A stretch of DNA of 64,000 nt from an uncultured Verrucomicrobiota bacterium (GTDB taxonomy: Bacteria; Verrucomicrobiota; Verrucomicrobiia; Limisphaerales; CAZZJO01), in contig CAZZJO010000043.1 of NCBI GenBank assembly GCA_964654645.1, positions 24,650-88,649 on the forward strand. The letters are read 5' to 3'. Of this stretch, positions 5,661 to 64,000 are shown piece after piece. The number at the start of each line of letters is the position of its first letter. Position 1 is the stretch's first letter. Made by a program: the position numbers and the translations under genes. The notes beneath the pieces are model-generated. The model had not been told where the DNA came from and did not search any database. It worked only from the letters and a program-made list of their open reading frames with translations.

Positions 5661-5725
5661 CGTTTTAGTATCCTGGGCAGCACATACCATTGGCTGTTGT
5701 TCACTTTTCAAAACTCGAATTTGTT

Positions 5726-6337
5726 ATGAGTCAGAGGCTACAAAGTATAGTCACCCTTGATTTGGAAGGGGTTTTGACCCCTGAGATTTGGATAGCCGTT
5801 GCAGAGAAAACTGGCATTCAAGAATTGAGAAGAACAACCCGGGACGAACCCGATTACGACAAACTGATGCGAGGGCGAATAAAGATTTTAGACAACCACG
5901 GGCTTAAATTGTCGGATATCCAGGCTGTCATCAGCACACTTAAACCTTTGCCAGGGGCAAAAGAGTTTTTAGATAAGCTGCGGTCAATAGTGCAAGTAAT
6001 TATCCTTTCTGACACGTTTGAGCAGTTTGCTCGCCCGCTGCTTGAACACTTGGGTTGGCCTACCTTGTTTTGCAATACGTTGGTCGTTGAGAACGACCGA
6101 ATTGTGGACTACCGATTGCGATTGCCTGACCAAAAGCGGAAGTCAGTCTTAGCACTCAAGGATCTTAATTACAAAGTGATTTCAGTGGGGGATTCATTTA
6201 ATGACATTTCCATGTTGATGACAGCTGATGTGGGTATCCTTTTCCACGCTCCAGAGGCGATCCGGAAACAATACCCGCAATTTAAAGCAGTGGATGAATA
6301 CGATGAGTTACTTGCGGAGATTAAACGGCATCTGTGA
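5726..6337 (+). CDS. thrH: Phosphoserine phosphatase / homoserine phosphotransferase (HAD family)
   Basis: LDLEGVL.PEIW, TTRDEPDYD.LM..R, LSDTF and GDSFND are ThrH signatures. ATG 5726 preferred (ORF track 5690). Confidence 0.92.
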   Translation: MSQRLQSIVTLDLEGVLTPEIWIAVAEKTGIQELRRTTRDEPDYDKLMRGRIKILDNHGLKLSDIQAVISTLKPLPGAKEFLDKLRSIVQVIILSDTFEQFARPLLEHLGWPTLFCNTLVVENDRIVDYRLRLPDQKRKSVLALKDLNYKVISVGDSFNDISMLMTADVGILFHAPEAIRKQYPQFKAVDEYDELLAEIKRHL

Positions 6338-32605: not shown

Positions 32606-32836
32606 TTACTGGTCAAGCACGCGGACTCTATAAAAGCTGGTTGGCAGATTCGGCTCGATCGCTAATATGTAGGCGATAGGCTCACCGGTCCCGCTTATGA
32701 TTGGTGTTACTGGTTGCCAATTTTTGGAGGTTAGGTCGCTGGTCGTTTCAATTACAAATTTTTGGCCTGGGTATGAATTCCATTGTAAGAGGATCGAAGT
32801 AGGGTCATTTGCTGAAGCGTGAATGGTTGGTGGGGA
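32606..32836 (-). other. Shared C-terminal domain, copy 2 (..LQWNS..KFVIETTSDLTSKNWQPV..SFYRV)
   Basis: Aligned by eye with the other copies. Confidence 0.65.
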
Positions 32837-48926: not shown

Positions 48927-50594
48927 TTAGGGTTTAGAGTGTATTTGGACACCTGTCATTCCAATTTGGTCCCAATGTAGGTTTTTGATGGCTGGGATAT
49001 CATCCTTCATGCTGTTGAAAATCTCCTCTGGTTGTGTTCCAAGTTTTTTCCCGTTAAGGCAAGCTAGCAGATTATTTATCCAAATATAGGCAGGGCGAGC
49101 CTCGCTGGGAGGTTCTACTGCCTGGAAGAATTTTTGGATTCGACCGCTTTTATTAATGAATGTGCCAGTTTTTTCAGCAAAGGTTGCCCCAGGGAAAACC
49201 ACGTGAGCTTGATCGGTCAGTGCTGTGCGAACGACATCATACACTACAAGTAGGTCTAGTTTACCTAAGATAGGTTGGGTCAGTTCAGGGACTTGGGTGT
49301 TTTCGCCAAACACAAAAAGTATTTTCACGCGTCCTACTTCGATATCGTGGATAATTTTTGGTATGTATAAGCCCACTTCTGAGTAACATACGCCTGTAAG
49401 GATTGCGCCTTGGGTGTTTGGGTTTCGGTCGGACGAAAGCAACAGATGATCGTGTGGGCCTTGTGCCACGAGGATGTCGGAGGTGCAATTTAAAAGAGAT
49501 TTAAGCTTAGCTACGAGCCAAAGCTCCTCTGTTGATAGTTGCCCAGAGGCTATAATTGCTGCTTGTTTGGAACTGTTTTTTCGGAGGAAATTTGCAACAT
49601 ACTCGACAGCATGCTGGGGGGATATGCTCGTTCCGTTAACGGTCGGACGGACCAACCGGGTAGGACTTTGGGTAAGCTTGTATTGAAACCTTCCGTGATC
49701 ACACATCCATGGACCATTAACTTCGTCGTTTTGACGGGGAGTAATGCGGTAGATCACATTTTGTCGAGACCAGATTGTTATATTGCAGCCTGTGCTACAG
49801 CCTGGGCATATACTGGGTGTTTCTTTGAGGAACCAAACCCGCATTCGAAACCGGAAATCCACAGACGTTAAGGCACCTACAGGGCAGATATCCACCGTGT
49901 TTAACGTGTAATTATTGTCGAATTTTTTACCGGGATAAACTGCAATCATTGAACGGGCTCCTCTGTTAATGATCCCTAGCACGTCATCGCCTACTATTTC
50001 TCGGGTAAACCGTATACATCGTGTACATAAAATGCAACGTTCAGCGTCATACATTACCCGCGGCCCAAGTTGGACGGCTTTGGGTTTGTGGAGCTTTGTT
50101 TCGTTAAATCTAGAGCTGTCTCTCCCGTAAGCTACTACGTGTTCTTGGAGGGTACATTCCCCGGCTTGGTCACAAATTGGGCAGTCTAAAGGGTGGTTCG
50201 CAAGAAGGAATTCAAGGATGCCTGTGCGCATTTGTTTAACTGCGGGCGTATCGGTATAAATTTCCATGCCTGGGGTGATGGGGGTTGCACATGCAATTAC
50301 AGGCCGTGGGGATTTTTGTACTTTGGGCGTACCGTCTGGGTTCAAGACGAGTTTGCCACTTGAATCTTTCACCGGGAAACCTACCTCGACAAGGCACATT
50401 CGACAGTTCCCGGCTATGGGGAGTTTTGGGTGGTAACAGAAATGGGGGACTTCTACCCCAGCCAAAATGCATGCTTGCATGATCGTAGTGGGGGCTGGTT
50501 GCCCTCGCCAGTCAGGCGTGAGCAGACTCACGGTAATGGGCTTCCCATTTACTTTGACGGTAGCCAGTTGGTCTTTTTCATCCATTTGGCTCAT
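48927..50594 (-). CDS. nuoG: NADH:quinone oxidoreductase subunit G
   Basis: PHFCYHP, GNCRMC, HPLDCPICDQAGEC, CILCTRC and CPGCSTGC..C Fe-S motifs. Confidence 0.95.
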   Translation of the reverse strand: MSQMDEKDQLATVKVNGKPITVSLLTPDWRGQPAPTTIMQACILAGVEVPHFCYHPKLPIAGNCRMCLVEVGFPVKDSSGKLVLNPDGTPKVQKSPRPVIACATPITPGMEIYTDTPAVKQMRTGILEFLLANHPLDCPICDQAGECTLQEHVVAYGRDSSRFNETKLHKPKAVQLGPRVMYDAERCILCTRCIRFTREIVGDDVLGIINRGARSMIAVYPGKKFDNNYTLNTVDICPVGALTSVDFRFRMRVWFLKETPSICPGCSTGCNITIWSRQNVIYRITPRQNDEVNGPWMCDHGRFQYKLTQSPTRLVRPTVNGTSISPQHAVEYVANFLRKNSSKQAAIIASGQLSTEELWLVAKLKSLLNCTSDILVAQGPHDHLLLSSDRNPNTQGAILTGVCYSEVGLYIPKIIHDIEVGRVKILFVFGENTQVPELTQPILGKLDLLVVYDVVRTALTDQAHVVFPGATFAEKTGTFINKSGRIQKFFQAVEPPSEARPAYIWINNLLACLNGKKLGTQPEEIFNSMKDDIPAIKNLHWDQIGMTGVQIHSKP

Positions 50595-51994
50595 GCAGAT
50601 ACAAGGGATTTATCAGTAAGTTTGCCGGTGTGGGTATGGTTTGAAAGGTAGTGGAGTATTTCGTGCCTGAATTTCGTGGCGATGCTTTGGACTGGTCCAG
50701 CGCATGCGTCCCCGAATGCGCAAACGGTTTTCCCACCACCAATATTATTAGCAAGCTCAATCAGTAGATCTAAGTCAGATTCTGTTGCATTCCCGGATTG
50801 AATTCGTTGTGCAATTTTTAGCATCCAAAGGGTGCCTTCCCTGCAGGGAGTGCATTGGCCACAACTTTCATGTGCAAAAAACTCAAGTACACTCACAAGG
50901 ACGTCAACCATGTTTGTGGAATCGTCGATCACAATTATCCCTCCTGAACCGCTCATGGTGCCTGCTGATGAAAGGGTGTCGAAATCATACGGGAGGTCGA
51001 GTATGTTCAGAGTATTTGTTGTAGTTTTGCCTGGCAGCTGTACTGTAAAGGTTTCATCAAGACGGAGGACTTTAGACGATATACCCCCGGGAAAAATGGC
51101 TTTGAGTTTTCTATTGGGTGGAAGACCGCCGCCAAATTCGGGGTCAAAGACCAGATCACCCAGTGTAAACTTGCCCAATTCAATTTCGTAGACGCCTGGT
51201 TTTTTGACTGCGCCACTAAGGCAAACAAGCCGTGTACCGGTATTATTGGGTGTGCCAAGCCTAGCATAATTTTCCCCACCCATTTCCACGATGTGTTTAA
51301 CTGCGCACAATGTTTCCACATTGTTGACGATGGTTGGGCAACCATACAAACCGTACACTGCGGGGAAGTATGGGGGTTTGATACGTGGGTATGGGCGTTT
51401 ACCTTCCAAAGATTCGATTAGGCCTGTTTCCTCCCCACAGATGTAGGCGCCTGCACCTCGATGAATTACCACTTCTAAGTCATACCCGGTGTTGAGAATG
51501 TTTTTTCCTAGAAACCCATGCTGGACAGCTTCTTGAATTGCGTTTTCGAGGATTTTAGCTCCCTGGGGGAATTCGCCCCGGATATAAATGAAGGCCTTAT
51601 GAACGTGGTTGGCAAAGGCAGCTATAGCAAGGCCTTCCAGAAGCTGGTGAGGATCTCTGTGAATTATTTGTCTATCTTTGAAAGTACCTGGTTCGGATTC
51701 GTCTGCGTTACAGATCAGGTAAATGGGTTTATCTTGCTTATTTTGGTGAACAAACTCCCACTTTGTTCCTGTGGGAAAACCGGCGCCACCGCGCCCACGC
51801 AAACCAGAACGTTTAATTTCGTTTCTAATTAATTCTTGGGGTGAGATAACCCGACCATTTGATTCCAAAGAAGGTTGCATTGTAAAGACACGACGTAGGG
51901 TTTGGTATCCCCCGTGCCTGAGGTAGCATTGGATGTCGGGGGTATAATCCGGGTTAGAAAAGTTCTTCGTGATAAGTTTGGTTTGTTTGCTCAT
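50591..51994 (-). CDS. nuoF: NADH:quinone oxidoreductase subunit F
   Basis: GLRGRGGAGFPTG, CNADESEPGT, AYICGEET and ESCGQCTPCREG motifs. Confidence 0.97.
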   Translation of the reverse strand: MSKQTKLITKNFSNPDYTPDIQCYLRHGGYQTLRRVFTMQPSLESNGRVISPQELIRNEIKRSGLRGRGGAGFPTGTKWEFVHQNKQDKPIYLICNADESEPGTFKDRQIIHRDPHQLLEGLAIAAFANHVHKAFIYIRGEFPQGAKILENAIQEAVQHGFLGKNILNTGYDLEVVIHRGAGAYICGEETGLIESLEGKRPYPRIKPPYFPAVYGLYGCPTIVNNVETLCAVKHIVEMGGENYARLGTPNNTGTRLVCLSGAVKKPGVYEIELGKFTLGDLVFDPEFGGGLPPNRKLKAIFPGGISSKVLRLDETFTVQLPGKTTTNTLNILDLPYDFDTLSSAGTMSGSGGIIVIDDSTNMVDVLVSVLEFFAHESCGQCTPCREGTLWMLKIAQRIQSGNATESDLDLLIELANNIGGGKTVCAFGDACAGPVQSIATKFRHEILHYLSNHTHTGKLTDKSLVSA

Positions 51995-52037
51995 TTTCTA
52001 GTAAAAACTTTGTTTGTCGCTGTCCCTGTGTGAAGTC

Positions 52038-52065
52038 TTGACAGGTACCCTGGGCCGACTAATTT
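52038..52065 (+). promoter_or_regulatory. Sigma70 promoter for tRNA-Gln
   Basis: Perfect TTGACA (52038-52043), 16 nt spacer, TAATTT (52060-52065), 11 nt upstream of the mature tRNA 5' end. Confidence 0.6.
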
Positions 52066-52076
52066 TAGGGCAGAGC

Positions 52077-52150
52077 TGCCCGATGGTGTAACGGTAGCAC
52101 AGCAGACTCTGGATCTGCGTGTCTTGGTTCGAATCCAAGTCGGGCAGCCA
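52077..52150 (+). tRNA. tRNA-Gln(CTG), CCA encoded, antisense within the nuo cluster
   Basis: TGCCCGATGGTGTAACGGTAGCACAGCAGACTCTGGATCTGCGTGTCTTGGTTCGAATCCAAGTCGGGCAGCCA forms a full cloverleaf with anticodon CTG. Confidence 0.97.
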
Positions 52151-52169
52151 AATTTGTTTGCGCCACATT

Positions 52170-52721
52170 TCATTTCGGTATTTCCGCACGATTGCAATTG
52201 CGGATTATTTCTTCCAAGGTCGATATGGTGCATCTTTCCAGGAGTTGATCACTTAACATTGCTACGGGAGCTAGGTCACATGCGGCAAGACATTCTACTT
52301 GTTCTACAGTGATGTGTCCGTCAGGGGTTGTTTGTGGGCCTGGATTGTTGGGGTCCAAATTAAGCTGGGCGCAAAGTGTGTGATAAAGATGTAAACTGCC
52401 TTTTAGCATGCATGGGAGAGACTTGCAGATTTTAATGTGGATTTGGCCGCTGGGTGTTTGTCTAAGCATGGGATAAAAGGTTACCAGTTCTAGCACGTGA
52501 ATGGGATCCACCCCCACTTTAGATGCGGTCCATTCTATTAATTGTGGGGTGAGGTACCCAAATTTTTCCTGCAAGGTATGGAGGATCATAAGGACGGCGC
52601 TTCGTGGTACCGGATACTGTTTAATGATCGAATCCACGTGAAATTCAATCTCTGGTGTGATCCGGGTATGATCACACACTTGGTGTGAATCAAATTGGGC
52701 TTTGGTCAGATCGTTTTCCAT
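52170..52721 (-). CDS. nuoE: NADH:quinone oxidoreductase subunit E
   Basis: YP..RSA.L, VTFY, CKSLPC and ECLAAC..AP 2Fe-2S ligands. Confidence 0.95.
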   Translation of the reverse strand: MENDLTKAQFDSHQVCDHTRITPEIEFHVDSIIKQYPVPRSAVLMILHTLQEKFGYLTPQLIEWTASKVGVDPIHVLELVTFYPMLRQTPSGQIHIKICKSLPCMLKGSLHLYHTLCAQLNLDPNNPGPQTTPDGHITVEQVECLAACDLAPVAMLSDQLLERCTISTLEEIIRNCNRAEIPK

Positions 52722-52732
52722 GGTTTTTACTT

Positions 52733-54001
52733 CTATCTATCGCATTCGCCCATGACAAAATCCAATGAGCCTAGGATGGCAGGTATATCGGCTAGCAGGT
52801 GGCCGGGGAGAATTACAGGTAAAATACTTAGGGTGAAAAATGAGGGAGGTCGGATCCTTAACCGGTAAGGCACACCACCACCGCGGCTTTGAATGTAGAA
52901 GCCTAATTGGCCCTTTGGGTTTTCGTGGGCAAAATAGACTTCGCTGGGTGGACAGTCAGGACCGCGTGTAACATTCATAAAATGATGGATTAACTCTTCC
53001 ATTTGCGTCATTACGTTCGATTTTGGTGGCAGGGCTACCTTGAAGTTACTGATCATAATTGGCTCATGGCTGGTATTGTCTGGTCCGCCGGGAATTTTTT
53101 GGATGCATTGGCGGATGATCGAGGCGCTCTGACGGATTTCTTCTAACCTGACCAGGTACCGGTCGTAACAATCTCCTATTGTACCTATGGGTATGTCAAA
53201 CTGGAGTTCATCGTAACATAGGTACGGTTGATCTTTCCGAAGGTCTAATGGCACGCCGCTGGCTCGCAAGTTGGGTCCAGTCAATGCATAGTCGATCGCA
53301 GTTTGTGGTGGGATCGTACCTACATTTTTAGTTCGTTTTATCCAAATGATATTCCGTGTAAGTAACCGGTCGATCTCATCTACGGTTCTAAGGAGTTCAT
53401 CGAGAAATTTGTTGAGTGTGGTGCACCACCCAGGTGGGAGATCACGAGCTACACCGCCGATTCGAGTGTAGCTGGTGGTGAATCTCGCACCTGTGAGCGC
53501 TTCGCAGAGGTTGTAGATTTTTTCGCGTTCTGTGAATTGGTATAGGAAGACAGTGACAGCGCCGCAGTCCATTGCAAATGCGCCTAGCCCAAGCAGGTGT
53601 GAAGAGATTCTAGCTAATTCACTACAGATTGTTCGTATGTAAACTGCGCGTGGCGGGATTTGATCTTCTATACCCAGCAATTTTTCAACTGCCAACACGT
53701 AAGCTACATTGTTTGCCAAGGGTGCTAAATAGTCCAATCTGTCGGTGTATGGGATGAATTGGGTATAGGTGAGATGCTCAGCAATTTTTTCAAAACCGCG
53801 GTGCAGGTATCCGATATGAGGCCGGACTGACACGATCCGTTCGCCGTCCAATTCTAATTCGATTCGAAGCACACCGTGTGTGGATGGGTGGGAGGGGCCC
53901 ATGTTCAAGTGTAATAGGTCGTTTTCTGACCAGGTGTGCGCAGGGGCCCCCCCTGGATGGTAGATCAACTGAAAAGTTTGATTTTCGTTCTGGTTAAGCA
54001 T
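52733..54001 (-). CDS. nuoD: NADH:quinone oxidoreductase subunit D
   Basis: NMGPSHPSTHGVLR, GYLHRG.EK, DRLDYLAP, GDCYDRY and GSLDFVMGECDR motifs. Confidence 0.97.
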   Translation of the reverse strand: MLNQNENQTFQLIYHPGGAPAHTWSENDLLHLNMGPSHPSTHGVLRIELELDGERIVSVRPHIGYLHRGFEKIAEHLTYTQFIPYTDRLDYLAPLANNVAYVLAVEKLLGIEDQIPPRAVYIRTICSELARISSHLLGLGAFAMDCGAVTVFLYQFTEREKIYNLCEALTGARFTTSYTRIGGVARDLPPGWCTTLNKFLDELLRTVDEIDRLLTRNIIWIKRTKNVGTIPPQTAIDYALTGPNLRASGVPLDLRKDQPYLCYDELQFDIPIGTIGDCYDRYLVRLEEIRQSASIIRQCIQKIPGGPDNTSHEPIMISNFKVALPPKSNVMTQMEELIHHFMNVTRGPDCPPSEVYFAHENPKGQLGFYIQSRGGGVPYRLRIRPPSFFTLSILPVILPGHLLADIPAILGSLDFVMGECDR

Positions 54002-54002
54002 T

Positions 54003-54572
54003 TTACTGTTGGGGATGGGCCCGTGGTTCGCTGGGATGATGGCCTGGGAGTATGTGGAATGGCCCGCCTTCCAGAGGTGCGGGCTCAGTGAAAAGACCGT
54101 TAGATCCTTGCCAGGATCTTCCAGCTAACGGGAAATCTTTTCTCATTGGATGCCATGGGTATTCATCCCACATTAGAATCCGCCGCAGATCAGGATGCCC
54201 TTGGAATCGTATACCGAACATATCGTAAACTTCACGTTCTAACCAATTACTCGCAGGCCATATATGGGAAACTGTGGGGAATGTAGGCGGATCTTCGTTT
54301 GTACTGATACGCAACCGAAGCATGCAATTTTCTTTTATGTTCCATAAATGATACACCAACATCCATCTTGGCGAAGTTTCCAGGTTATCCACCGCAGTCA
54401 GGTCTAGCAGCATCTCAAACCCCAACTGGTGTTTTAGAAAATGGCAGATCTTTAGCAGGTCTGACCCAGAATTGATTACCAAAGTAGTCTGACCACGGAA
54501 CTCGGTGTGTTCTACAATAAGCTTAGGGAAGGCCGATTTAAGTAAGTTTACCTTTTCTGCGAGTGTGGACAT
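54003..54572 (-). CDS. nuoC: NADH:quinone oxidoreductase subunit C
   Basis: DLTAVD, WLEREVYDMFGI.F.GHPDLRRILM and HPMRKDFPL. ATG 54572 preferred (ORF track 54707 overlaps nuoB). Confidence 0.95.
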   Translation of the reverse strand: MSTLAEKVNLLKSAFPKLIVEHTEFRGQTTLVINSGSDLLKICHFLKHQLGFEMLLDLTAVDNLETSPRWMLVYHLWNIKENCMLRLRISTNEDPPTFPTVSHIWPASNWLEREVYDMFGIRFQGHPDLRRILMWDEYPWHPMRKDFPLAGRSWQGSNGLFTEPAPLEGGPFHILPGHHPSEPRAHPQQ

Positions 54573-54591
54573 AGACTGTGTGTGTAAAGTT

Positions 54592-55095
54592 TTAGCTTTC
54601 AATTTGGCGCCGGAAGAGAGGTTGTGTTTGGATTTTTTGCTGGAGTTGTATAAGTGCCTGAAGGATTGCTTCTGGTCTAGGGGGGCATCCAGCAATGTAC
54701 AAGTCAACCGGTATAATGCGGTCTACGCCTTGTAATACTGAGTACGACCTGAACATTCCTCCTGTGCATGCACAGGCACCCATGGCAATGACCCATTTAG
54801 GTTCCGTCATTTGTTCGTACAAGGTTTTAATTATGGGCGCCATTTTGTAAGTAACAGTACCTGCAACAATCATCACATCTGCTTGGCGGGGGCTAAACCG
54901 CATTATTTCTGATCCAAATCTTGCGAGGTCAAAACGTGCGCCACCGCTTGCCATAAGTTCGATGGCACAGCATGAAGTCCCAGCCGGTAACGGCCAAATA
55001 GAGTATTTCCTGAACCAGTTTATCAATGCTTCCAGCCTGGTCAGCAGCACCGTACCATCGTAAATACCAGTTCCGGCTTTGCAACTTCTCTGCAT
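54592..55095 (-). CDS. nuoB: NADH:quinone oxidoreductase subunit B
   Basis: SCCAIE, RFG, SPRQAD, MGACA and GCPPRPE motifs. ATG 55095 preferred (ORF track 55140). Confidence 0.95.
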
Positions 55096-55352
55096 CTTAT
55101 TTACGCACAGCGAATATTCGGTTCGGAAAAGTAACCGCATTTTGCTACCGAGGTAAATCAGTTGGCAAGCCAGATCCTGAATAATATTAAGCTGGGTCAG
55201 TTCGAGCCTGATTTTGGCGGATTGGCAAGGGAAAGCGTTTATTTGTATGTCCGAAACCGTTCCCAGACCTTATAGGTTTGCTTTTTAACCCGATGGGTAA
55301 GGATTTGCGTAATGTGTGTTTTAACGGATTGTAAGCCTGGGCAAGACAATGG

Positions 55353-56312
55353 TTAAGTGTGAGTGTTTGATTTTTCGTAGTGAGTTTGGTGAGCCAGGCG
55401 TGTGGCAACAAATAGACTCAAACCGTATACGAGAAGGGTGCCAAGAACACCTGCTAGAATTGTTCCGAGTAACCCAAGGTTAACATCCCCGAGTTTTATA
55501 TTGTAGTCTTGCGCCGGGGCAGGGAATATAGGCTTATTAGACGCTTTTTCAATAAATCCGAAGTTGTGGGCTACGCGCTCAAGACCGTCAGGCCAACCAC
55601 ATGCCACCGGCGTGCCTATAATCACAAGGCCGATCACAGCAGCGAATCCGAACCCAATTGCATGTCGTGCTGGTGTTTGAGAAGGTTTTTCTTGTAGATT
55701 TAGCAGGTGGGGGAAAAGCCTATGCAGAGTAGCTACAAGTAAAGCTGAGATTACCCCCTCGCCAAGCCCGATTATTGCATGAATGCCCATCATGATTGGG
55801 AAAACCAGATTACTTTTAACGGTGCCTGAGATTTTTAGTTCTGCTGCGCAGGCAAAAGCGGCTGCTACAGTACTTGCCCAGCCCCCGAAGCAAACGCCTG
55901 CGTACATGCCGAGTGGATCACCTAAAATTTTTCTTAGCTTTTTGGCGAGGAAGTAACCTCCCGTGGGGGCAATGATTGCCATGTTAATGATATTTGCGCC
56001 AAGGGCGGTTACCCCACCATCCGCAAACATAAACGTTTGTGCTACCAAGACTGTGGTCATGATTAAGATTGCGGGTGGAAGCCCCAGCACGGTTGCCATT
56101 AATGTGGCACCGAGTAAGTGACCAGAGGTGCCTTTGGCTACAGGGAAGTTTATCATTTGCGCGGCAAAGACAAACGCGGCGCCCAAACCAATAAGCGGTA
56201 CAGTGCGTGGATGAACCCGAAGTTTGACAAAGGTAGGTATGACTACAGCAGCGGCTAAAATTCCCGTGCCCACAGCCGTTTTGATGTCTAAGAAACCATC
56301 GGGTATGTGCAT
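55353..56312 (-). CDS. cbiM: CbiM/NikM ECF-type Ni/Co S component fused to a PDGLE (NikN) domain
   Basis: N-terminal MHIPDGFL, AQMINFP..GTSGH, GG.TALGAN and H..IG.GE motifs, with C-terminal WPDGLERVA. Confidence 0.92.
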   Translation of the reverse strand: MHIPDGFLDIKTAVGTGILAAAVVIPTFVKLRVHPRTVPLIGLGAAFVFAAQMINFPVAKGTSGHLLGATLMATVLGLPPAILIMTTVLVAQTFMFADGGVTALGANIINMAIIAPTGGYFLAKKLRKILGDPLGMYAGVCFGGWASTVAAAFACAAELKISGTVKSNLVFPIMMGIHAIIGLGEGVISALLVATLHRLFPHLLNLQEKPSQTPARHAIGFGFAAVIGLVIIGTPVACGWPDGLERVAHNFGFIEKASNKPIFPAPAQDYNIKLGDVNLGLLGTILAGVLGTLLVYGLSLFVATRLAHQTHYEKSNTHT

Positions 56313-56322
56313 AACCAGTGGC

Positions 56323-57837
56323 TTAGTTCAAATGGTTTTGATTATTTGTGATCTCAAACTCGAGTTGTTCTTCAAAGATGTTTTTACGATCGAGGGAAAG
56401 CCAAGTTTCCAGGGAGATTTTTCTTAACGTGTGGAAATATTCGGGTGAGTTTGTGCCATATAAGGCTGCGGCTTTGTTGATTTTGTCTTGAATTTCTTTC
56501 AAAGGTCCCGGCTTGGGTTTCAGTATGAGTTTTTTCCCTTTTGCGTGGAATATAGCTATGGGTTGAGGCTTGTCAGCAGGGTGGATTGTGATCGTACCTC
56601 GGCCGAGACTTGCCCCAGTTGAGAATTGGATACCATCGTTTAGACAGCTGATAGGTGGGTTTGTGCTTGCAAGCGTTTCCACGTAAATAGAATCTCGGGG
56701 TACCCCAAGTATTTCTCGAGCTCGCAAACCCATCTTCACTCCAAGTATAGAGTACAATCCTAGGTGTCCATGCATCTCGGTGGCCATGACACCGAGTGCC
56801 CATTCCTCAACTCCATGCCGGAGAATGATCTGCTGTACATATGGGGCGACGTCGGGCTTATAGAACTCCGGCTCGGAGGGGAACCGAGATAGAAGGACCA
56901 TGTTGAGCATTCCTTCCTGTAGAATATCGAGATATGTGTTTGATGCTTTGGCGGTGTCGAGACCAGTTACCATCGTGACGTTTGAACATGTTGTGACGTG
57001 AGTTGGAAGCGCAATCGCAGGTTCATGCATAAGCAGCACTACCGCATCATCCCAGGCCCGGAAATGTCCAGATGCTACTAGGGATTTGACTCGTGGATGG
57101 GAATGGATTTGAAGAATGAGTGATGCGCCGGGCGAGTTGATAGATTTGAGAGATTCGAAGAAGTTGCTTGTTAGTACTAGGGTAAACTGCGGTAGCAAAC
57201 TCACGCACGTAATCGGAATGCCCGATGCAAATGCTTTTTTAGCTGCTTCAAGGTCTTGGGCTGTGTTCCATCCTTTTGGTTCCGTATCCGGAGGCGTGCC
57301 ATAATAGTAAACCCTCGAGATCATGTGTTTTAAATTGGGATATCGGCTTAGAAATTCGGCAAGATTTGACATTGGTCCTAAACAAACCCAGGTCACAGGT
57401 CTTGAAGAAGTGGCTATTGTATTGGAAAGAACCACGTGTGCAGGTTGAATATTAATTTGTGCTGGGAGCAGTAGTTCAGTCCAACCCAAGGTCCGCGACC
57501 ATGCCGACCATACGGGGTATGGTTGGTTAAGCTTATTGCCCTGGCCGACCGGAATGTTTGCTTTGTTCATAGCAGCAAGTATTTTGAGAACGTTCGTGAC
57601 ACCTATTTCGGAGGGGGTTGAACCGTCAGAAGTCACAATTGCCCTAACATCGCAATTTGGATCCTGCAATATGAGTATAATGGCGCGAGCATCATCCAAC
57701 GCCATGTCAGTATCAATAACAAGGGGCGCTGACATTTCATGAGCGATTACCTGAAATGAGAACACAACAGCAACTATTACCAGGTGTGAAAGCTTGTTTG
57801 CGGGTGCAATGGTAGTATTACTTAATGCTGGCACCAT
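56323..57837 (-). CDS. Exported nucleoside-hydrolase-fold protein fused to a C-terminal FmdE/FwdE domain
   Basis: Signal peptide, then IDTDMALDD, LGPMSNLA and WN..QDLEAA (IU-NH fold). C-terminal HGHLG..S..GVKMG and SCLNDGIQ.STGASLG.G.I (FmdE). ATG 57837 preferred (ORF track 57867). Confidence 0.8.
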   Translation of the reverse strand: MVPALSNTTIAPANKLSHLVIVAVVFSFQVIAHEMSAPLVIDTDMALDDARAIILILQDPNCDVRAIVTSDGSTPSEIGVTNVLKILAAMNKANIPVGQGNKLNQPYPVWSAWSRTLGWTELLLPAQINIQPAHVVLSNTIATSSRPVTWVCLGPMSNLAEFLSRYPNLKHMISRVYYYGTPPDTEPKGWNTAQDLEAAKKAFASGIPITCVSLLPQFTLVLTSNFFESLKSINSPGASLILQIHSHPRVKSLVASGHFRAWDDAVVLLMHEPAIALPTHVTTCSNVTMVTGLDTAKASNTYLDILQEGMLNMVLLSRFPSEPEFYKPDVAPYVQQIILRHGVEEWALGVMATEMHGHLGLYSILGVKMGLRAREILGVPRDSIYVETLASTNPPISCLNDGIQFSTGASLGRGTITIHPADKPQPIAIFHAKGKKLILKPKPGPLKEIQDKINKAAALYGTNSPEYFHTLRKISLETWLSLDRKNIFEEQLEFEITNNQNHLN

Positions 57838-57870
57838 AATAAATCGTGCTTTACAGAAGCTTTTCATATG

Positions 57871-57898
57871 GTATTAATGACATCAGAAAGCGTAATAC
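57871..57898. promoter_or_regulatory. Candidate NikR-type operator GTATTA-N16-TAATAC
   Basis: Perfect 6-bp inverted half-sites at 57871-57876 and 57893-57898 with a 16-nt spacer, upstream of a nikMN-type gene. The E. coli NikR operator is GTATGA-N16-TCATAC. Confidence 0.6.
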
Positions 57899-57899
57899 T

Positions 57900-59048
57900 A
57901 TGAAGCGACTCAGGTCAAGTTCAGTCAGATTGGCGTGTTTTGCGTTTGCAAGCCTTGTTGCTGTAAGTACGCCTGCTACAACAAATTGTCAAATAAGGTT
58001 TGTGCGGCACTGGGATTTGCAGGCTGTGACTGAAACCGGCACCAGTGCGTGGGCCGGATCATACCCGTTTACGATAATTGGTGTTCTTTTGACTGATCCA
58101 GATGAGATGTTGGATTCCACTCCGAACTTTCAGCCGGCAAGCTCGAATAACATGGGCGGTCAATGGCAGATGGTTATCCAAGCGTTGCCGCCAGATCGTG
58201 GCGGCACGTTTTTGTGGATGGGCCAAAATTACGCAATTCGGCGACCACCCTATGACGATGCCTTCAGCTATACTGATGAAGAATGGGTAGCTGAGATAAA
58301 TAGATTGAATCATGATCCATATACTGGGCATGCGTTCCGGAAAGGCGATTTAGTCGCTGTTACAGCAAACGCGAGCTTGTTTTACGGTGGCAAACGCAAC
58401 GTGAATGAGGCGCACCGGAAGGAACCAGAGTATGATTTTAACATTGTTTTACTTGCAACGAATTACGGGCTTCCCGAGCCGGAGGTAATTACATTGGCCT
58501 CTTTGGTTAGGCCTGACGACGGAAATCCGGCCACTAGTGAGGATATATTTGACCCCACGCGAATGAGTGGAGGGGAGTATTGGCAAGGGATGCGAGTCCG
58601 GATAAATGGATTAAAGTTAGTCACCACGAATGGTTGGGATCCAACTCTTTCTTGGAGTCAGCGGGTGTGTATTGTTACGGATGGTGAGAATAGATTTTTT
58701 AGAGTTCGGCATCCTAGGTATTCGTTGGGACCCGCTCCAACCAACTGGTTCGATGCCATAGGGATTCTGAATCAAGAGAGTGGATCAGGTATCCAGGGAA
58801 CAAATGGATACGAGTTGTTTATCCAAGAAGTATTGCCAGCGGAGGAACCGCGGCTCAAAGTAGAACAGGCTGTTGTGGTTAGTTGGCCCTCCTCATTGAG
58901 TAATTACAGATTGCTATCGGCAGAATCGCCCGTGTCCACCAATTGGGTTCCAGTGACTAACAAACCCGTTCTCATAGGAGATACCTTAAATGTGCTTTGC
59001 ACTCTAAATAATACACAACGGTTTTTCCGTCTTGAACGGATACGGTAG
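57900..59048 (+). CDS. Exported hypothetical protein with a probable tandem OB-fold-like region and a C-terminal RFFR domain
   Basis: Signal peptide after ATG 57900 (ORF track 57846). PEPEVITLASL..GEYWQGMRVRINGL and FDAIGIL resemble OB-fold modules of extracellular nucleases (by eye). Confidence 0.6.
   Translation: MKRLRSSSVRLACFAFASLVAVSTPATTNCQIRFVRHWDLQAVTETGTSAWAGSYPFTIIGVLLTDPDEMLDSTPNFQPASSNNMGGQWQMVIQALPPDRGGTFLWMGQNYAIRRPPYDDAFSYTDEEWVAEINRLNHDPYTGHAFRKGDLVAVTANASLFYGGKRNVNEAHRKEPEYDFNIVLLATNYGLPEPEVITLASLVRPDDGNPATSEDIFDPTRMSGGEYWQGMRVRINGLKLVTTNGWDPTLSWSQRVCIVTDGENRFFRVRHPRYSLGPAPTNWFDAIGILNQESGSGIQGTNGYELFIQEVLPAEEPRLKVEQAVVVSWPSSLSNYRLLSAESPVSTNWVPVTNKPVLIGDTLNVLCTLNNTQRFFRLERIR
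58842..59048 (+). other. Shared C-terminal domain, copy 3 (..VVSWPS..NYRLLSAES..TNWVPV..RFFRL)
   Basis: Aligned by eye with the other copies. Confidence 0.65.
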
Positions 59049-59135
59049 AGACGCCGCATCGATAGCATAGTGCACAGGGTCGTAAAAGAGCCGAGGAGTC
59101 AGAAAAATGGGGGGCGGGTAGGAAGCACTGTTTTG

Positions 59136-59786
59136 ATGATGCTCGCCCCCCGTATCTTTAGTTGGGGGTTTACTCTGGTGGAGTTATTGGTGGTAATTGG
59201 GGTTATTGGCTTGCTGGCAGGGTTGATGCTACCTGTAATCCGACACGTAGCTGAAAAAAGTAAGGTAGTGGCCGTCCATTCGGATTTGTATCAGATAGGC
59301 TTAGCCTTACACGTGTATGCGGATGACCATGGTGGACGTGTTCCTCCAGTGCGTGTCAATTGCAACAATGATTTGCGGGATCATTGGTGTCAACTACCGC
59401 CCGAGTTAGCTGCAGGCAACTATCTCCCTACAGGCATAGAAGCCGGTCGTGAAGTGGCATTTTTTGATCGCTTTAACCCCGGTTTTACATACAAATACGC
59501 AGCCCCTGGGCCAATGCTGCTTAACAACGAGCCAATAGGCAACTACGCTTTATGGATACCCACCAGTTTCCCTAACTTGGAAAGCACAAATGGACGGTAC
59601 TTTGAGACACCGTCAGATAGCCCAGTAAAATGGGTGATTTGGAGTGTCGGTCCACGCCCCAACAGTCCAAAGAGTACTAGCAAATATGCCCCTATGAGTT
59701 CGACCACGTGGTATAAACGTGTGGGTGACTCAGGCGTGATTATCCGGTATGCCACACGGGATGGAATCCAGTTTAAGAGTCCTTAG
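59136..59786 (+). CDS. Prepilin-type N-methylation domain protein (GspG-like pseudopilin)
   Basis: G-FTLVELLVVIGVIGLLAGLMLP cleavage/methylation motif and C-terminal IWSVGP. ATG 59136 preferred (ORF track 59070). Confidence 0.85.
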   Translation: MMLAPRIFSWGFTLVELLVVIGVIGLLAGLMLPVIRHVAEKSKVVAVHSDLYQIGLALHVYADDHGGRVPPVRVNCNNDLRDHWCQLPPELAAGNYLPTGIEAGREVAFFDRFNPGFTYKYAAPGPMLLNNEPIGNYALWIPTSFPNLESTNGRYFETPSDSPVKWVIWSVGPRPNSPKSTSKYAPMSSTTWYKRVGDSGVIIRYATRDGIQFKSP

Positions 59787-59941
59787 CCATTTGAACCACA
59801 GTAGGGGCCGGATTTTAAGTCGCCATTTACGTATAGCAGGAGCGGTAATGTCTGTGTAGTTTGGATGAGTGTAACAGTTCACTATTGTAGGCAGCAGCGT
59901 TTAGTTTGCACGTGGTAGCGGGATTATGTCAGGGGAAAATA

Positions 59942-59977
59942 TCAACCCCGCAACTATTCCAATAGTTGCGAGGTTGA
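59942..59977. terminator. Long hairpin between convergent genes, probable bidirectional intrinsic terminator
   Basis: TCAACCCCGCAACTATT-CC-AATAGTTGCGAGGTTGA has 17-nt arms with one mismatch (G-U on the minus strand). It is followed by ATTTTGT on + and TATTTT on -. Confidence 0.7.
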
Positions 59978-60039
59978 ATTTTGTATAACGCGTAGCTCGG
60001 GGTTACACTCCGGGAGAGTAAAGGCAACAAACCGACCGC

Positions 60040-60243
60040 CTATTGGTCTAGCGGAGTCCACATCAGCCGGAAAAACCGCGTCTGAGAATCAATCCGGTTG
60101 GTGTATGGGCTCGTTGCATTTGTTACTCTGGTGTAAGGACCTAGCACGTTTGTGGCGGTGTAAAGTGAGAATCTTGGCTCAGTCCATTGCAGCACTACGT
60201 TATCGCCCTGGCGCTGTAGATGTAGTGGCACGGGAGCGGGTGG
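60040..60243 (-). other. Shared C-terminal domain, copy 4 (..VVLQWT..FSLYTATNV.GPYTRVTNA..RFFRL)
   Basis: Aligned by eye with the other copies. Confidence 0.6.
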
Positions 60244-62178
60244 TTCGACTGGCAAGTCTATAACGGCTATGTAGAGGTTGCTTACGATAAACTGGGATGC
60301 TGAGCTTTGTGCGCTGGCAACTCTTATAGCGAATGCGTCGAACCTGTGGAACGGAAAGTTGGTTTCTACTCCTACCACAGTCCAGTTAGTGCCACCGCCT
60401 ATGATGGAATTTGTAATGCGGACCATGTTTTTTGCGATGCGGCTGATAGTAAGCCGATTTGTGTAAAACACGTTTTCCTGGAAGGCGGGGGCACCCAGAA
60501 GGCCCGCTGGTCCAGCAGTAATTGATACGAAATCGCCTATTGTGCCCATTAAGTTAGCTGAATCGAGTGCTGCCCTATAGTAAAGCCCGATTGGACTGTT
60601 TATGGAGAATACTTTACCAAAGTCGATATTCACCATGAATCCATTGACCATGGTGCCGTTCCCACCGCTACCACTGAACCCACTTGCGGTTGGTCGAGTT
60701 GCGCCATCGGCATAGTTAAATAGCCCAAGCCTTAGCCCACCATTGCTTTCCACGATTCCATTTGCTTGGAAGACAAACTCAGTAACTAGCCCTTTACCTA
60801 CGTCTAAATGAATAGGAGGAGCATCTTTGTCGGTGAAAAACGCAAGTACCAGCATTGAAGATGTCTGAGGAGGTTCTAGGACTAGATTATATCTAGTGGT
60901 TTGGTTTTCGTCGTCCCAGTAGCCATATAGGTAACGCCCCGTACCAGATGAGTAAAGCCAAGCCGCATTGGTTGTGTTAACGGGATATCCAGGTACAGTG
61001 TCACCCCATTCGTAATCTTCCCACCGTTCATCTAAAACCAAGCCGGTTGGGGTTTTAACTGCTTGTGTAACGTTGACCGTTATTATCGAGGATGTGGCCC
61101 AGCTATTGTTGCATGGGACGTTTACAAGACATCTATATCTAATCCCATTGTCAGCCAGGCTGAGAAGGGGGGTAAAGTACTTGCTTGCATATGACCCGAT
61201 GCCTCCACTTGCATTAACCCAAGTGATACCGTTGTCGCGACTTTCCTGCCAGGAATGAACACGAGCCGTGCCGCGGCTGATGACGGAGAGCATTGTAAGT
61301 GCCCCCTCAGAAATAGTTGGATTGTTTGTTGGCAGAGTAAAATCTATCGCGGCCTTCACACACGTACCTACCGGTGGAGTTACGTCTGCCCAGTTTGTTG
61401 AGAACCGGAATTCGTCAAATGTTGCATTAGCCTCCGGCCAGACATCGAGATAAAAGCGGCCAGGCCCCGTACTGCTACTGTCTTCGTATCCTTCGCTGGT
61501 AGATGCATCTGGCGGGGGAACTTCCTCTTCAGATTTCGCAAATGTGCTTGGGGGTGGGTTGACCCAGAGGTCAACAATATCATCCGACCTTGTAGCGCCA
61601 ATCATTTGTTGCCTGGCTACCACGAAAACTGTTTCCCCCACTGCTATATTTTTTGGTACCCAAACAGGGATACCATTGGATTTTGCTATTCCTAATTGGA
61701 TGTAGTTGCCGCTTAATCGCGCTTGAATGCTGAAATTTGTTGGACTGGATCCGTTCTGCCTTGTGACTACCGCGATCACCTTGCCCTGTGGATCCAAACC
61801 GCTTGTAGAGTTAAATCTGTAGAGAAATGAGAAATATAGCTTTGCTTCAGCTGAGGGTGGATACGCCCTGTTAGTTGCAAACAGGCAATAGTGGGAATGC
61901 ACATATCCCGTTCCCCCTCGTATTTCTGCTTTATCGCCAGCAGATGCTACCAGTCCAAGAGGGGTGCCATCCAAGCTGCCGCTGCCAAACTCGACAAATA
62001 CATTGGTGGCTGTACCATACCACCCTTCGTGGGCGGCAACACCGACTTGCCCAACAGGCCCGCTTTGGCTTGCCATGAACTGGCTTTCTATAGGCGGCGT
62101 TTGCCCGAGAGCTTGTAATATGAGAGTAATTCCGAAGATACCCGCAAGGCCGATTGCGTTTGGTTTCATAGTGGTCAC
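60040..62178 (-). CDS. Exported hypothetical beta-rich protein (lectin-like regions plus an Ig-like domain) with a C-terminal RFFR domain
   Basis: Signal peptide, FDEFRFSTNWADVTP, Ig-like WQESRDNG...GIRYRCLV, and ends SQTRFFRL. ATG 62169 is the likely start. Confidence 0.65.
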   Translation of the reverse strand: MTTMKPNAIGLAGIFGITLILQALGQTPPIESQFMASQSGPVGQVGVAAHEGWYGTATNVFVEFGSGSLDGTPLGLVASAGDKAEIRGGTGYVHSHYCLFATNRAYPPSAEAKLYFSFLYRFNSTSGLDPQGKVIAVVTRQNGSSPTNFSIQARLSGNYIQLGIAKSNGIPVWVPKNIAVGETVFVVARQQMIGATRSDDIVDLWVNPPPSTFAKSEEEVPPPDASTSEGYEDSSSTGPGRFYLDVWPEANATFDEFRFSTNWADVTPPVGTCVKAAIDFTLPTNNPTISEGALTMLSVISRGTARVHSWQESRDNGITWVNASGGIGSYASKYFTPLLSLADNGIRYRCLVNVPCNNSWATSSIITVNVTQAVKTPTGLVLDERWEDYEWGDTVPGYPVNTTNAAWLYSSGTGRYLYGYWDDENQTTRYNLVLEPPQTSSMLVLAFFTDKDAPPIHLDVGKGLVTEFVFQANGIVESNGGLRLGLFNYADGATRPTASGFSGSGGNGTMVNGFMVNIDFGKVFSINSPIGLYYRAALDSANLMGTIGDFVSITAGPAGLLGAPAFQENVFYTNRLTISRIAKNMVRITNSIIGGGTNWTVVGVETNFPFHRFDAFAIRVASAQSSASQFIVSNLYIAVIDLPVEPPAPVPLHLQRQGDNVVLQWTEPRFSLYTATNVLGPYTRVTNATSPYTNRIDSQTRFFRLMWTPLDQ

Positions 62179-62195
62179 GCTGTTCTCAGTATAGG

Positions 62196-62224
62196 CTAAT
62201 ACTTTACGCTGAATGTTTTGTCAA
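62196..62224 (-). promoter_or_regulatory. Candidate sigma70 promoter for the 712-aa exported protein
   Basis: On the minus strand: TTGACA (62219-62224), 17 nt spacer, TATTAG (62196-62201). Confidence 0.4.
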
Positions 62225-62341
62225 AAATAAGTGGTTCTGAAATTCTGCACGGCGGTTTCAAAAAAATGCACCCTCCACATCCGAATGCCCAAAAGGAATG
62301 AGGGTTGGAGATAATTTTTGAGGGTGAGATTGCTTGTTTAG

Positions 62342-64000
62342 CTAATCACCGGTTTCCGAATATTCGAACCAATCGAAATCCGCCGGTGCAGAACACGGTT
62401 TGCCATTACCGGAAGCATATAGACCTATTACAACACCAGTGAAGTTGAAGTTGGCTCCTGGCTGAGAACTTAGCGTTTCAGTTGATAGGTCTCGAGTTAG
62501 AAGTTCGCCCAACTTGGTTTCCCCGCCATCTGGTTTAACGAAAAAGAATTCGTAGCGTAATGGAGTAGCTCTTATCCCTAGTTCAATGAAGCCAGGTTGA
62601 ACGTTAATGATCTTTTCTGGGGCAATTTGACCATTCCGGATAATTTTTAGGGCAACCACGGTTTGGTTTTCGCGGCGGGTCACGACAAGAACTGCGTGGT
62701 TCCGTTCATTACCGCGAATTGCTAAGCCAGCCTCTTCGTTTTCCGCAGTAGGCGTGAAAAATACTCGGGTACGGACCACGCAATTGAACGCAGTTTGGCG
62801 TCGGCCGACAAAGGTGGGCGAGCCTATGTCTCGTAGGCTCACAGAAGCGCCTTTGAGCCGCAGGATTCCTGGCCGTTCGGTAAGCGAGTAGTTTTCTTCT
62901 ATTGGGTTGCGGACGAATACCCAGTCAACCGGGAGGTTAGACTCTGAAAACTCGACTCGTGTTGGTGGTTTTGGCCAAGGGCATGGTGGCAGTTTCGGGG
63001 CTGTCATAACTTCGGCAATGGGTTTGTTGTCGTTTATCACAGGCCATCCTTTTTCATTCCATTTCAAGGGTGCTAGAAAAGTTTCCCTACCAAGGTGGTG
63101 ATGTCGTCCACCGACTGGGCGGAACCCGAGAAAGACAATCCACCATCCGTCGGGTGTTTCTACCAGGTCTCCATGGCCAAGGCCCTGGAATGGATGATCA
63201 GGAAGGTGTTTATGAGTGAGAATCGGGTTGTGTGGACACGGTTCATAAGGACCCCAAGGCGAATCGCTGCGTGCAATCGTGATGCAGTGGCCGTAGCTTG
63301 TGCCTCCTTCCGAGATCATGAGGTAGTATTTCCCGTTAATCTTGTAGAGATGTGGACCTTCTGGCCAGACGCCACCCGTACCCCGCCAAATTTCTTTCAT
63401 TTCTCCGATCAGTTTTCCCGTTTGGATGTCAATGAGTTGGAGCCCAATATATCCACGTTCTCCGCCTACTTGCCTGTGGTAATATACCTTTCCGTCTTCA
63501 TCGAAGAAAAGGGACGGATCGATGCCCTCTCGGTCAAGCCACACTGGGTCTGACCAGGGTCCCGCAGGATTTGTCGCGTACACATAGAAATTGCCTCCAC
63601 CCCACACGTGGGTAGTGATCATGTAGAAGACACCATTGTGATACCGGATGGTGGGGGCAAAGATCCCATGGGACGATTGCCGTCCTTCTAGGTTGAGTTG
63701 CGATTTACGTGTGAGGCAATGACCGATTAAACGCCAGTTTACTAAATCGCGGCTGTGGAAAACTGGGACCCCTGGGAAATATTCGAATGTACTATGCACC
63801 ATGTAATAGTCGTCTCCCACCCGGCAAATGCTAGGATCTGGGTAAAAACCTCGTATGATTGGATTCCGGTACATAGCAGGTTGAGTTAATTGGCCGTCAG
63901 TTTTTGTTGGAGACGCAGAAATGGTTTGTGATGTAACCAACGCTATGATTGGAATAAAAAGCCTTGTTAAGCATTTATGAAGGTAGAACCTTCGGAGACC
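62342..64000 (-). CDS. GH43 beta-xylosidase/arabinofuranosidase with a C-terminal lectin-like domain; start may lie outside the window
   Basis: GFYPDPS, IDPS and WPEGPH catalytic motifs, plus HGDLV and GRETFL. The frame stays open from 63940 to the window edge through a signal-peptide-like stretch. Confidence 0.9.
   Translation of the reverse strand, partial: GLRRFYLHKCLTRLFIPIIALVTSQTISASPTKTDGQLTQPAMYRNPIIRGFYPDPSICRVGDDYYMVHSTFEYFPGVPVFHSRDLVNWRLIGHCLTRKSQLNLEGRQSSHGIFAPTIRYHNGVFYMITTHVWGGGNFYVYATNPAGPWSDPVWLDREGIDPSLFFDEDGKVYYHRQVGGERGYIGLQLIDIQTGKLIGEMKEIWRGTGGVWPEGPHLYKINGKYYLMISEGGTSYGHCITIARSDSPWGPYEPCPHNPILTHKHLPDHPFQGLGHGDLVETPDGWWIVFLGFRPVGGRHHHLGRETFLAPLKWNEKGWPVINDNKPIAEVMTAPKLPPCPWPKPPTRVEFSESNLPVDWVFVRNPIEENYSLTERPGILRLKGASVSLRDIGSPTFVGRRQTAFNCVVRTRVFFTPTAENEEAGLAIRGNERNHAVLVVTRRENQTVVALKIIRNGQIAPEKIINVQPGFIELGIRATPLRYEFFFVKPDGGETKLGELLTRDLSTETLSSQPGANFNFTGVVIGLYASGNGKPCSAPADFDWFEYSETGD

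Follow-up and report, generated by a model that had tools for sequence, protein, structure and literature searches.

NikR is a ribbon-helix-helix tetramer in which two DNA-binding dimers contact two heptamer half-sites, and the centres of these half-sites lie 21 bp apart, a separation of two helical turns. The operator of the E. coli nikABCDE operon, GTATGA-N16-TCATAC, covers a nickel-importer promoter, and one tetramer occupies it. In H. pylori the NikR operator consensus is TATWATT-N11-AATWATA, and TonB-dependent nickel uptake through frpB4 and fecA3 is placed under NikR control. The comparative study of Rodionov et al. (2004, Genome Biol 5:R90; PMC545781) described a delta-proteobacterial NikR signal, GTGTTAC-[N13/14]-GTAACAC, located upstream of nikM-type transporters, and quoted the enterobacterial consensus as GTATGAT-[N13/14]-ATCATAC, which has the same 27-28-bp structure. 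The sites collected in that study include a GTaTTAC half (at the hydAB site of D. desulfuricans), and reversed half-site orientations as well as two-site promoters are also reported there.

The locus described here lies in a 64-kb stretch of DNA from an uncultured bacterium (64,000 nucleotides, all of which was analysed and which is referred to below as the window), which originates from metagenomes of Great Boiling Spring sediment at 77 C. The nearest relatives of the organism among genome bins are Verrucomicrobiota, in which the fusion protein discussed below is 46% identical to that of the window. Positions 57871..57898 hold a perfect 28-bp dyad, GTATTA-N16-TAATAC (O1, listed without a strand), with half-sites GTATTA at 57871-57876 and TAATAC at 57893-57898 and the 16-nt spacer ATGACATCAGAAAGCG between them, just as a first-pass annotation of the sequence had stated. 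On the evidence of sequence comparison we consider it likely that a nickel-responsive repressor of the NikR family uses O1 as its operator.

NikR operators are dyads that span 27-28 bp and have about 21 bp between the centres of their half-sites. O1 has this geometry, and the annotation was right to describe the site in these terms. Compared with the E. coli nikABCDE operator the spacing is identical, the dyad is likewise 28 bp long and 10 of the 12 half-site bases are shared, which agrees with the earlier remark that the half-sites are one symmetric change away from GTATGA; the change affects position 5 of the half-site, which is T in O1 and G in E. coli. Like its E. coli counterpart, O1 is predicted to overlap the promoter of a nickel importer and to bind one tetramer. 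It differs from that operator in that the transporter it would regulate is a NikM/CbiM (ECF-type) component, in that it serves two divergent operons, in that nikR is not adjacent, and in the probable presence of a second, weaker site.

When it is written in heptamer form, as GTATTAA (57871-57877)-N14-GTAATAC (57892-57898), O1 matches 13 of the 14 positions of GTRTTAC-N14-GTAAYAC, with R and Y allowed at two positions, and this class fits it better than the E. coli operator does. O1 shares with the delta-proteobacterial signal the 7-N14-7 layout, the nikM-type transporter downstream and the varied half-site orientation (here among orthologues), while departing from it by A/T for G/C at position 3 and, in one half, by A for C at position 7. 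The setting also differs from the systems of PMC545781 in lineage (the relatives here are Verrucomicrobiota) and in a regulon that includes genes not described there. Taken over all the loci, the half-sites form a continuum that runs from GTATGA (E. coli, and loci L153, L154 and L165) through GTATTA (the window, locus L071 and the nikR promoter of L010) to GTGTTA, the delta-proteobacterial form, which is found in most orthologous loci. The H. pylori-type consensus was also considered for O1 and rejected, as its spacing does not fit. A resemblance to frpB4 and fecA3 is seen in L071 and in a Desulforhabdus locus (L176), where a TonB receptor adjoins the fusion gene, but the cluster in the window has no TonB receptor.

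The divergent operons and their genes

Two divergent operons are separated by a 32-nt gap that O1 fills, and this gap, upstream of the fusion-cbiM/nikM operon, is where a NikR operator would be expected. A single T (57899) separates O1 from the ATG of the right arm on the + strand at 57900, and the distance to the reverse-strand ATG at 57837 (CAT at 57835-57837) is 33 nt. Both of these distances had been given correctly, but the left-arm start may instead be a second in-frame reverse-strand ATG at 57867, which is only 3 nt from O1. The annotation had further placed the site upstream of a Ni/Co permease; the site does occupy the promoter gap of the left-arm operon, in which, however, the permease gene comes second.

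The first left-arm gene (56323..57867, - strand) encodes a secreted protein with a signal peptide in which an inosine-uridine nucleoside-hydrolase-like domain (PF01156, 1.6e-31) is fused to an FmdE domain (PF02663, 3.7e-16). Its length is 514 aa if translation begins at ATG 57867, as most gene callers have it, or 504 aa from ATG 57837, a version that is also on record. More than 240 homologues have the same architecture. The DxDxxxDD metal-binding motif is kept in the fusion of the window.

The second left-arm gene (55353..56312, - strand) encodes a CbiM/NikM-type Ni/Co substrate-capture permease (PF01891, 2.6e-50; PF13190, 1.5e-06). The PF01891 match covers residues 2-202, the N-terminus reads MHIPDG, and a PDGLE/CbiN-like extension, to which CbiN matches are weak, follows at the C-terminus; a CbiM domain with such an extension is what characterizes the substrate-capture component of Ni/Co ECF transporters, but the protein falls below the NCBIfam CbiM equivalog cut-offs (155 vs 219), so that the assignment is one of family-level membership only. 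Adjacency to cbiQ or cbiO, the other mark of such a transporter, was not found, since neither gene occurs anywhere in the 64-kb window or among the close relatives. In this lineage the NikM/CbiM-type gene stands alone, and its energising module must be encoded at another site of the genome or be missing. Among the orthologous loci, cbiQ directly follows cbiM in L007, L009, L010, L071, L087 and L092, and cbiO is present as well in L071 and L092.

Beyond the permease, across a 212-nt gap that has a promoter-like site of its own, lie nuo genes. A tRNA gene (52077-52147, + strand; Rfam RF00005, 61.9 bits) sits on the opposite strand within a 175-nt gap of this nuo cluster, between nuoE (52170-52721) and nuoF (50591-51994), and it was the sole match when positions 50000-64000 were compared with Rfam; the idea that a riboswitch or some other family of RNA precedes cbiM was therefore dropped. 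Elsewhere in the window there is a very long ORF of 2705 aa (32606-40723, - strand).

The right arm begins with a gene (57900..59048, + strand) for a secreted 382-aa protein of no described family, which has no match in Pfam, NCBIfam or the PDB. It has 961 homologues, all of them unnamed and most of them from Verrucomicrobiota. The AlphaFold model is confident (pLDDT 88), and a fold search with this model returned no significant match, the hits being weak and OB-fold-like (E > 1e-3); one of these hits is the DUF3299 protein PA4066 (E 0.018). The second gene (59070..59786, + strand; gene callers start it at about 59139) encodes a pseudopilin-like protein whose N-terminus has a methylation motif of prepilin type and matches TIGR01710 (GspG) at 7.9e-09 and TIGR02532 above the cut-off. 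In the loci examined the pseudopilin-like gene always follows the right-arm gene. Between the end of the right-arm operon and the convergent gene for a 712-aa protein (60040-62178) there is a strong 16-bp hairpin followed by a T-run (59942-59977), which is probably a terminator.

Chance expectation and conservation of the motif

The annotation had considered a palindrome of this kind in this position unlikely to occur by chance, and this judgement has to be divided. Perfect 6-N16-6 inverted repeats are ordinary in themselves, with 12 found in the 64-kb window against about 15.6 expected; it is the sequence of O1 and its place that are unusual. The exact pattern GTATTA-N16-TAATAC occurs once in the window, although three matches are found when up to two mismatches are tolerated, against 2.0 expected. 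If the half-site is required to be GTATGA or to lie one symmetric change away from it, which admits 19 half-sites, then O1 is the only pair at N16 in the window, where about 0.07 would be expected per 64 kb. For the degenerate half-site GTRTKAM, which was derived from orthologous promoters, O1 is again the single match at N14 in any orientation, against 0.053 expected, and the corresponding chance is about 1e-4 per 150-bp promoter region. In a scan with a position weight matrix (PWM) built from orthologous promoters only, with the lineage of the window excluded, position 57871 ranks first at 19.2 bits, followed by a runner-up at 13.0 bits, and its score was reached anywhere in 5 of 100 Markov-simulated windows, which corresponds to a window-wide p of about 0.05. 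A pair with two mismatches inside the nuoB coding sequence (54711-54738, GTATAAT-N14-GTAATAC) was judged to be a chance match, about two of this quality being expected per window.

Orthologous loci were collected with an alignment of the fusion protein as the query, which returned 160 loci; those with a divergent arrangement come from Verrucomicrobiota genome bins and from unlabelled metagenome contigs, and their promoters were aligned on the TTGAC anchor alone. The pattern TTGAC(C/G)-N14-GTRTTAC-N14-heptamer is present at the same place in all 13-14 non-redundant divergent orthologous loci and in the window, the first spacing being N13 in three loci. The second heptamer is either GTRTGAA, in direct orientation, or TTCATAC/TTAATAC, in inverted orientation; in the orthologues this second heptamer, box 2, is followed after 8 nt by the right-arm ATG, and in many of the loci a second heptamer pair (boxes 3 and 4) is found 9-11 nt beyond the first. 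The footprinting check that the annotation had proposed thus bears it out, the motif being conserved in orthologous promoters at the position of O1, as would be expected of a NikR operator.

In 1.85 Mb of related loci, pairs of GTRTKAM half-sites in any orientation, at N13 or N14, number 24 where about 3 would be expected, and for 22 of them a fusion, right-arm or nikR gene starts within 100 bp. These counts are partly circular, because the consensus was derived from some of the loci in which it was then counted; loci with matches that stood outside the derivation include L071, L079, L120, L137, L153, L154, L165 and the nikR promoter of L010.

The gene order recurs as well. The right-arm and pseudopilin-like genes adjoin the fusion gene in about 25 distinct loci, either divergently or colinearly, and cbiM comes after the fusion gene in these loci wherever it is visible in the retrieved sequence. 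The cluster itself contains nikR in four distinct loci, namely L010 (identical to L090), L092, L136 and L141. The order in L010/L090 and L092 is nikR, right-arm gene, pseudopilin-like gene, fusion, cbiM and cbiQ, with cbiO in addition in L092, while in L136 and L141 the right-arm gene, the pseudopilin-like gene and nikR are divergent from the fusion, which is followed by cbiM in L136. The regulator of L010 scores above the curated NikR cut-off (NF003381, 186.8 vs 105), and its own ATG is preceded by TTGACG...GTATTAC-N14-GTAACAC-c-ATG. This linkage of nikR to the orthologous cluster, together with the motif on the promoter of nikR itself, speaks for the reading of the site as a NikR target that the annotation had put forward. 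In L071 the sequence TTGACG-aata-GTATTAC-N14-GTAATAC-t-ATG precedes a TonB-dependent receptor gene that heads a receptor-fusion-nikM-Q-O operon, and the juxtaposition GTAATAC-t-ATG, at 57892-57902 of the window, is common to the two promoters.

The loci can also be compared for the orientation of the second half-site, which has the same place in the promoter in two groups of loci but is direct (GTRTGAA) in one (L006-L009, L074, L077, L085-L087 and L134) and inverted (TTCATAC/TTAATAC) in the other (L136, L141, L148 and the window). In L092 the pair forms a clean direct repeat, GTAACAC-N14-GTAACAC. Half-site orientation, the comparison suggests, is flexible for this NikR lineage, and the set of orthologous sites amounts to a natural experiment on how much variation in half-site orientation a NikR tetramer tolerates.

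Predicted overlapping promoters and a candidate second operator

Promoters of both arms are predicted on the basis of sequence, conservation and analogy with orthologues. The left-arm promoter would consist of the -35-like hexamer TTGACC (57913..57918, - strand), which lies 14 nt upstream of the O1 half-site and inside the first codons of the right-arm gene, and of the predicted -10 element TACGCT (57889..57894, - strand), for which the evidence is its sequence and a conserved TACG(T/C)T in the orthologues; TACGCT is 18 nt from TTGACC and overlaps the O1 half-site GTATTAC. The right-arm promoter (57850..57877, + strand), proposed by analogy with the orthologues, would comprise TTTACA (57850-57855), a 16-nt spacer and TATTAA (57872-57877), the last of which is inside the left O1 half-site. 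A scan of the intergenic region under strict sigma-70 criteria, which also looked for terminators, gave no match, and neither of the two predicted promoters was recovered by it. An ECF-sigma reading of TTGACC...CGT was rejected on the grounds that the 20-nt spacing is wrong for that class.

A Ni-loaded NikR tetramer on O1 would cover the left -10 element as well as the right -10 element and start region, and because O1 overlaps both predicted -10 elements, one such tetramer would shut off both arms at sufficient nickel, in a manner that resembles the action of NikR at E. coli PnikA. We infer that the control is repression rather than activation, that nickel is the effector and that nikR lies elsewhere in the genome. 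The same overlap means that part of the conservation of half-site 1 could reflect the promoter.

The conserved -35 element TTGACC falls within the signal-peptide region of the right-arm gene. In many orthologues (L006, L007, L009, L074, L077 and L085) the right-arm gene opens with ATG AAC GTA ACA C (Met-Asn-Val-Thr), codons that contain the reverse complement of GTGTTAC. With both elements inside the right-arm gene, regulatory DNA is embedded in coding sequence.

In close relatives (L089 and L169-L173, 93-97% protein identity) both O1 heptamers are unchanged, and of the five variable positions in the 32-nt gap four are in the 14-nt O1 spacer and the fifth is 57869. Four-fold-site divergence among these relatives is about 12%, at which the absence of any change in the 14 half-site bases has P = 0.16, so the footprint is underpowered and was set aside as a stand-alone test. 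In L174 the right-arm protein is 80% identical to that of the window and the intergenic DNA is otherwise unalignable; it contains GTATTAC-N14-TTCATAT, a 27-nt gap and GTAATAC-N14-GTAATAC. Between the window and L174 the heptamers match at 23 of 28 positions, against 14 of 55 in the interleaved spacers (Fisher p = 9e-7).

The comparison with L174 brings in a second site of the window, O2 (57815..57842, listed without a strand), which reads GTATTAC-N14-ATAATAA and agrees with the 6-N16-6 pattern at 11 of 12 positions. It overlaps the alternative left-arm ATG at 57837 and is 28 nt from O1. O2 is probably a second, weaker operator: its PWM score of 11.5 bits ranks 4th in the window, a score that is not significant window-wide, and the layout of site, gap and site is 28/28/28 in the window and 28/27/28 in L174, a conservation that supports O2. 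A 6-bp deletion in the O2 spacer of L089 counts against its being essential. Located 28 nt further into the left arm, O2 may add cooperative binding or a roadblock to the repression exerted at O1.

The regulator, competing explanations and a possible nickel module

No nikR was found in the 64-kb window by tblastn, using as queries the NikR proteins of E. coli, H. pylori and P. horikoshii and four NikRs from the orthologous loci; in other loci the first three queries did retrieve NikRs, with E down to 1e-49. Nor was nikR seen in 7 kb past the left end of the window, in about 4 kb past the right end, or in the loci of close relatives. A related nikR compared at the nucleotide level, at 80% identity, with the organism's genome bins of about 2.5 Mb (X2, X3 and X9) gave no match, as is expected for diverged DNA. 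A NikR profile search gave 7961 matches, the best 120 of which are all from other Verrucomicrobiota. Among the motif-bearing orthologous loci, too, the majority have no nikR within 6-10 kb (L006-L009, L074 and L085-L087).

The absence of nikR from the window and its flanks is what would be seen if O1 were a real operator to which some other regulator binds, for instance another ribbon-helix-helix protein or metal sensor, nikR having been lost from the locus or never having joined it, and the contrast with L010, L092, L136 and L141, where nikR is within the cluster, lends this explanation some weight. A distant nikR is, however, the norm among the motif-bearing orthologous loci, the motif is of the same type as that on the promoter of nikR itself, and the 21-bp half-site spacing is a requirement of the NikR tetramer that is established knowledge, and we therefore regard a different regulator as improbable. 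Recognition by RNA polymerase in place of a dedicated repressor is also unlikely in our estimation. Under this proposal the two heptamers are back-to-back -10-like boxes (TATTAA/TAATAC) of divergent promoters, and it accounts for the TAnnnN hexamer in each half-site, for the conserved TTGAC(C/G), which every orthologue has at a spacing from box 1 that would suit a -35 element, and for the location of orthologous box 2, which 8 nt before the right-arm ATG is the -10 place for a leaderless mRNA. It does not account for N14 heptamer pairs that have no divergent partner, as at the L010 nikR gene and the L071 TonB operon, or that occur in the colinear loci L092, L153, L154 and L165; nor for the conservation of the flanking G and C of GTnTnAC, which are not -10 positions, for extra pairs (boxes 3 and 4, and O2) where no -10 element is needed, or for the identity of the motif with the published NikR signal (PMC545781). 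The overlap of operator and promoter is in any case expected for a repressor, so the promoter boxes and a NikR operator are not mutually exclusive.

It is least probable of all, and in our view very improbable, that O1 is a chance palindrome in an AT-rich gap or a hairpin that acts in the RNA of the 5' leaders. The frequency of perfect 6-N16-6 repeats in the window (the 12 counted above) and the window-wide PWM p of about 0.05 would permit a chance origin, but such an origin is at odds with position-specific conservation across loci whose proteins are 50-97% identical to those of the window, and with the strong enrichment of the motif at the starts of fusion, right-arm and nikR genes. The hairpin is weak (its energy at 37 C is -7 kcal/mol and its z lies between -0.8 and -1.1), in an organism from 77 C sediment, and was rejected because it is not better than shuffles. 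The interpretation of O1 as a NikR operator is the one retained in what follows.

An operator of this type is a textbook metal switch, and O1 would add a thermophilic, uncultured relative of the Verrucomicrobiota to the lineages with NikR regulation. The conserved signal would tie three uncharacterised families to nickel homeostasis, namely the fusion, the 382-aa protein and its pseudopilin-like partner, and would make the neighbouring genes candidates for nickel uptake. We tentatively suggest, as a possibility that falls somewhat short of an even expectation, that the genes form an undescribed nickel-acquisition module in which NikR co-regulates four genes, for a NikM-type permease, a nucleoside-hydrolase/FmdE fusion located in the periplasm, a secreted OB-fold-like protein of no known family and a pseudopilin-like protein, through half-sites that are direct, inverted or everted at a fixed 21-bp spacing. 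This frames a testable hypothesis for a nickel route across the Gram-negative envelope to a solitary NikM-type permease.

The neighbourhoods of the fusion gene bear on its part in such a route. The fusion recurrently adjoins Ni/Co uptake genes in two phyla (cbiM/nikM, cbiQ, TonB receptors and DUF4198): loci of Verrucomicrobiota type have it with cbiM, and several also with cbiQ/cbiO or a TonB receptor, and in Desulforhabdus amnigena (L176) it stands beside a TonB receptor and a DUF4198-CbiM-CbiQ cluster. A literature search for a link between the nucleoside-hydrolase/FmdE fusion and nickel found none. Because the fusion recurs with nikM, cbiQ, TonB receptors and DUF4198, its neighbourhoods in at least two phyla hint that it may process a nickel complex in the periplasm or pass it on. 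In the nikR-linked cluster of L092, the CbiO-like ATPase (5499-6329) has a histidine-rich insertion, HDRDHAHHGHAHQHFPGLPHHHDDEPHG, which is suggestive of metal binding.
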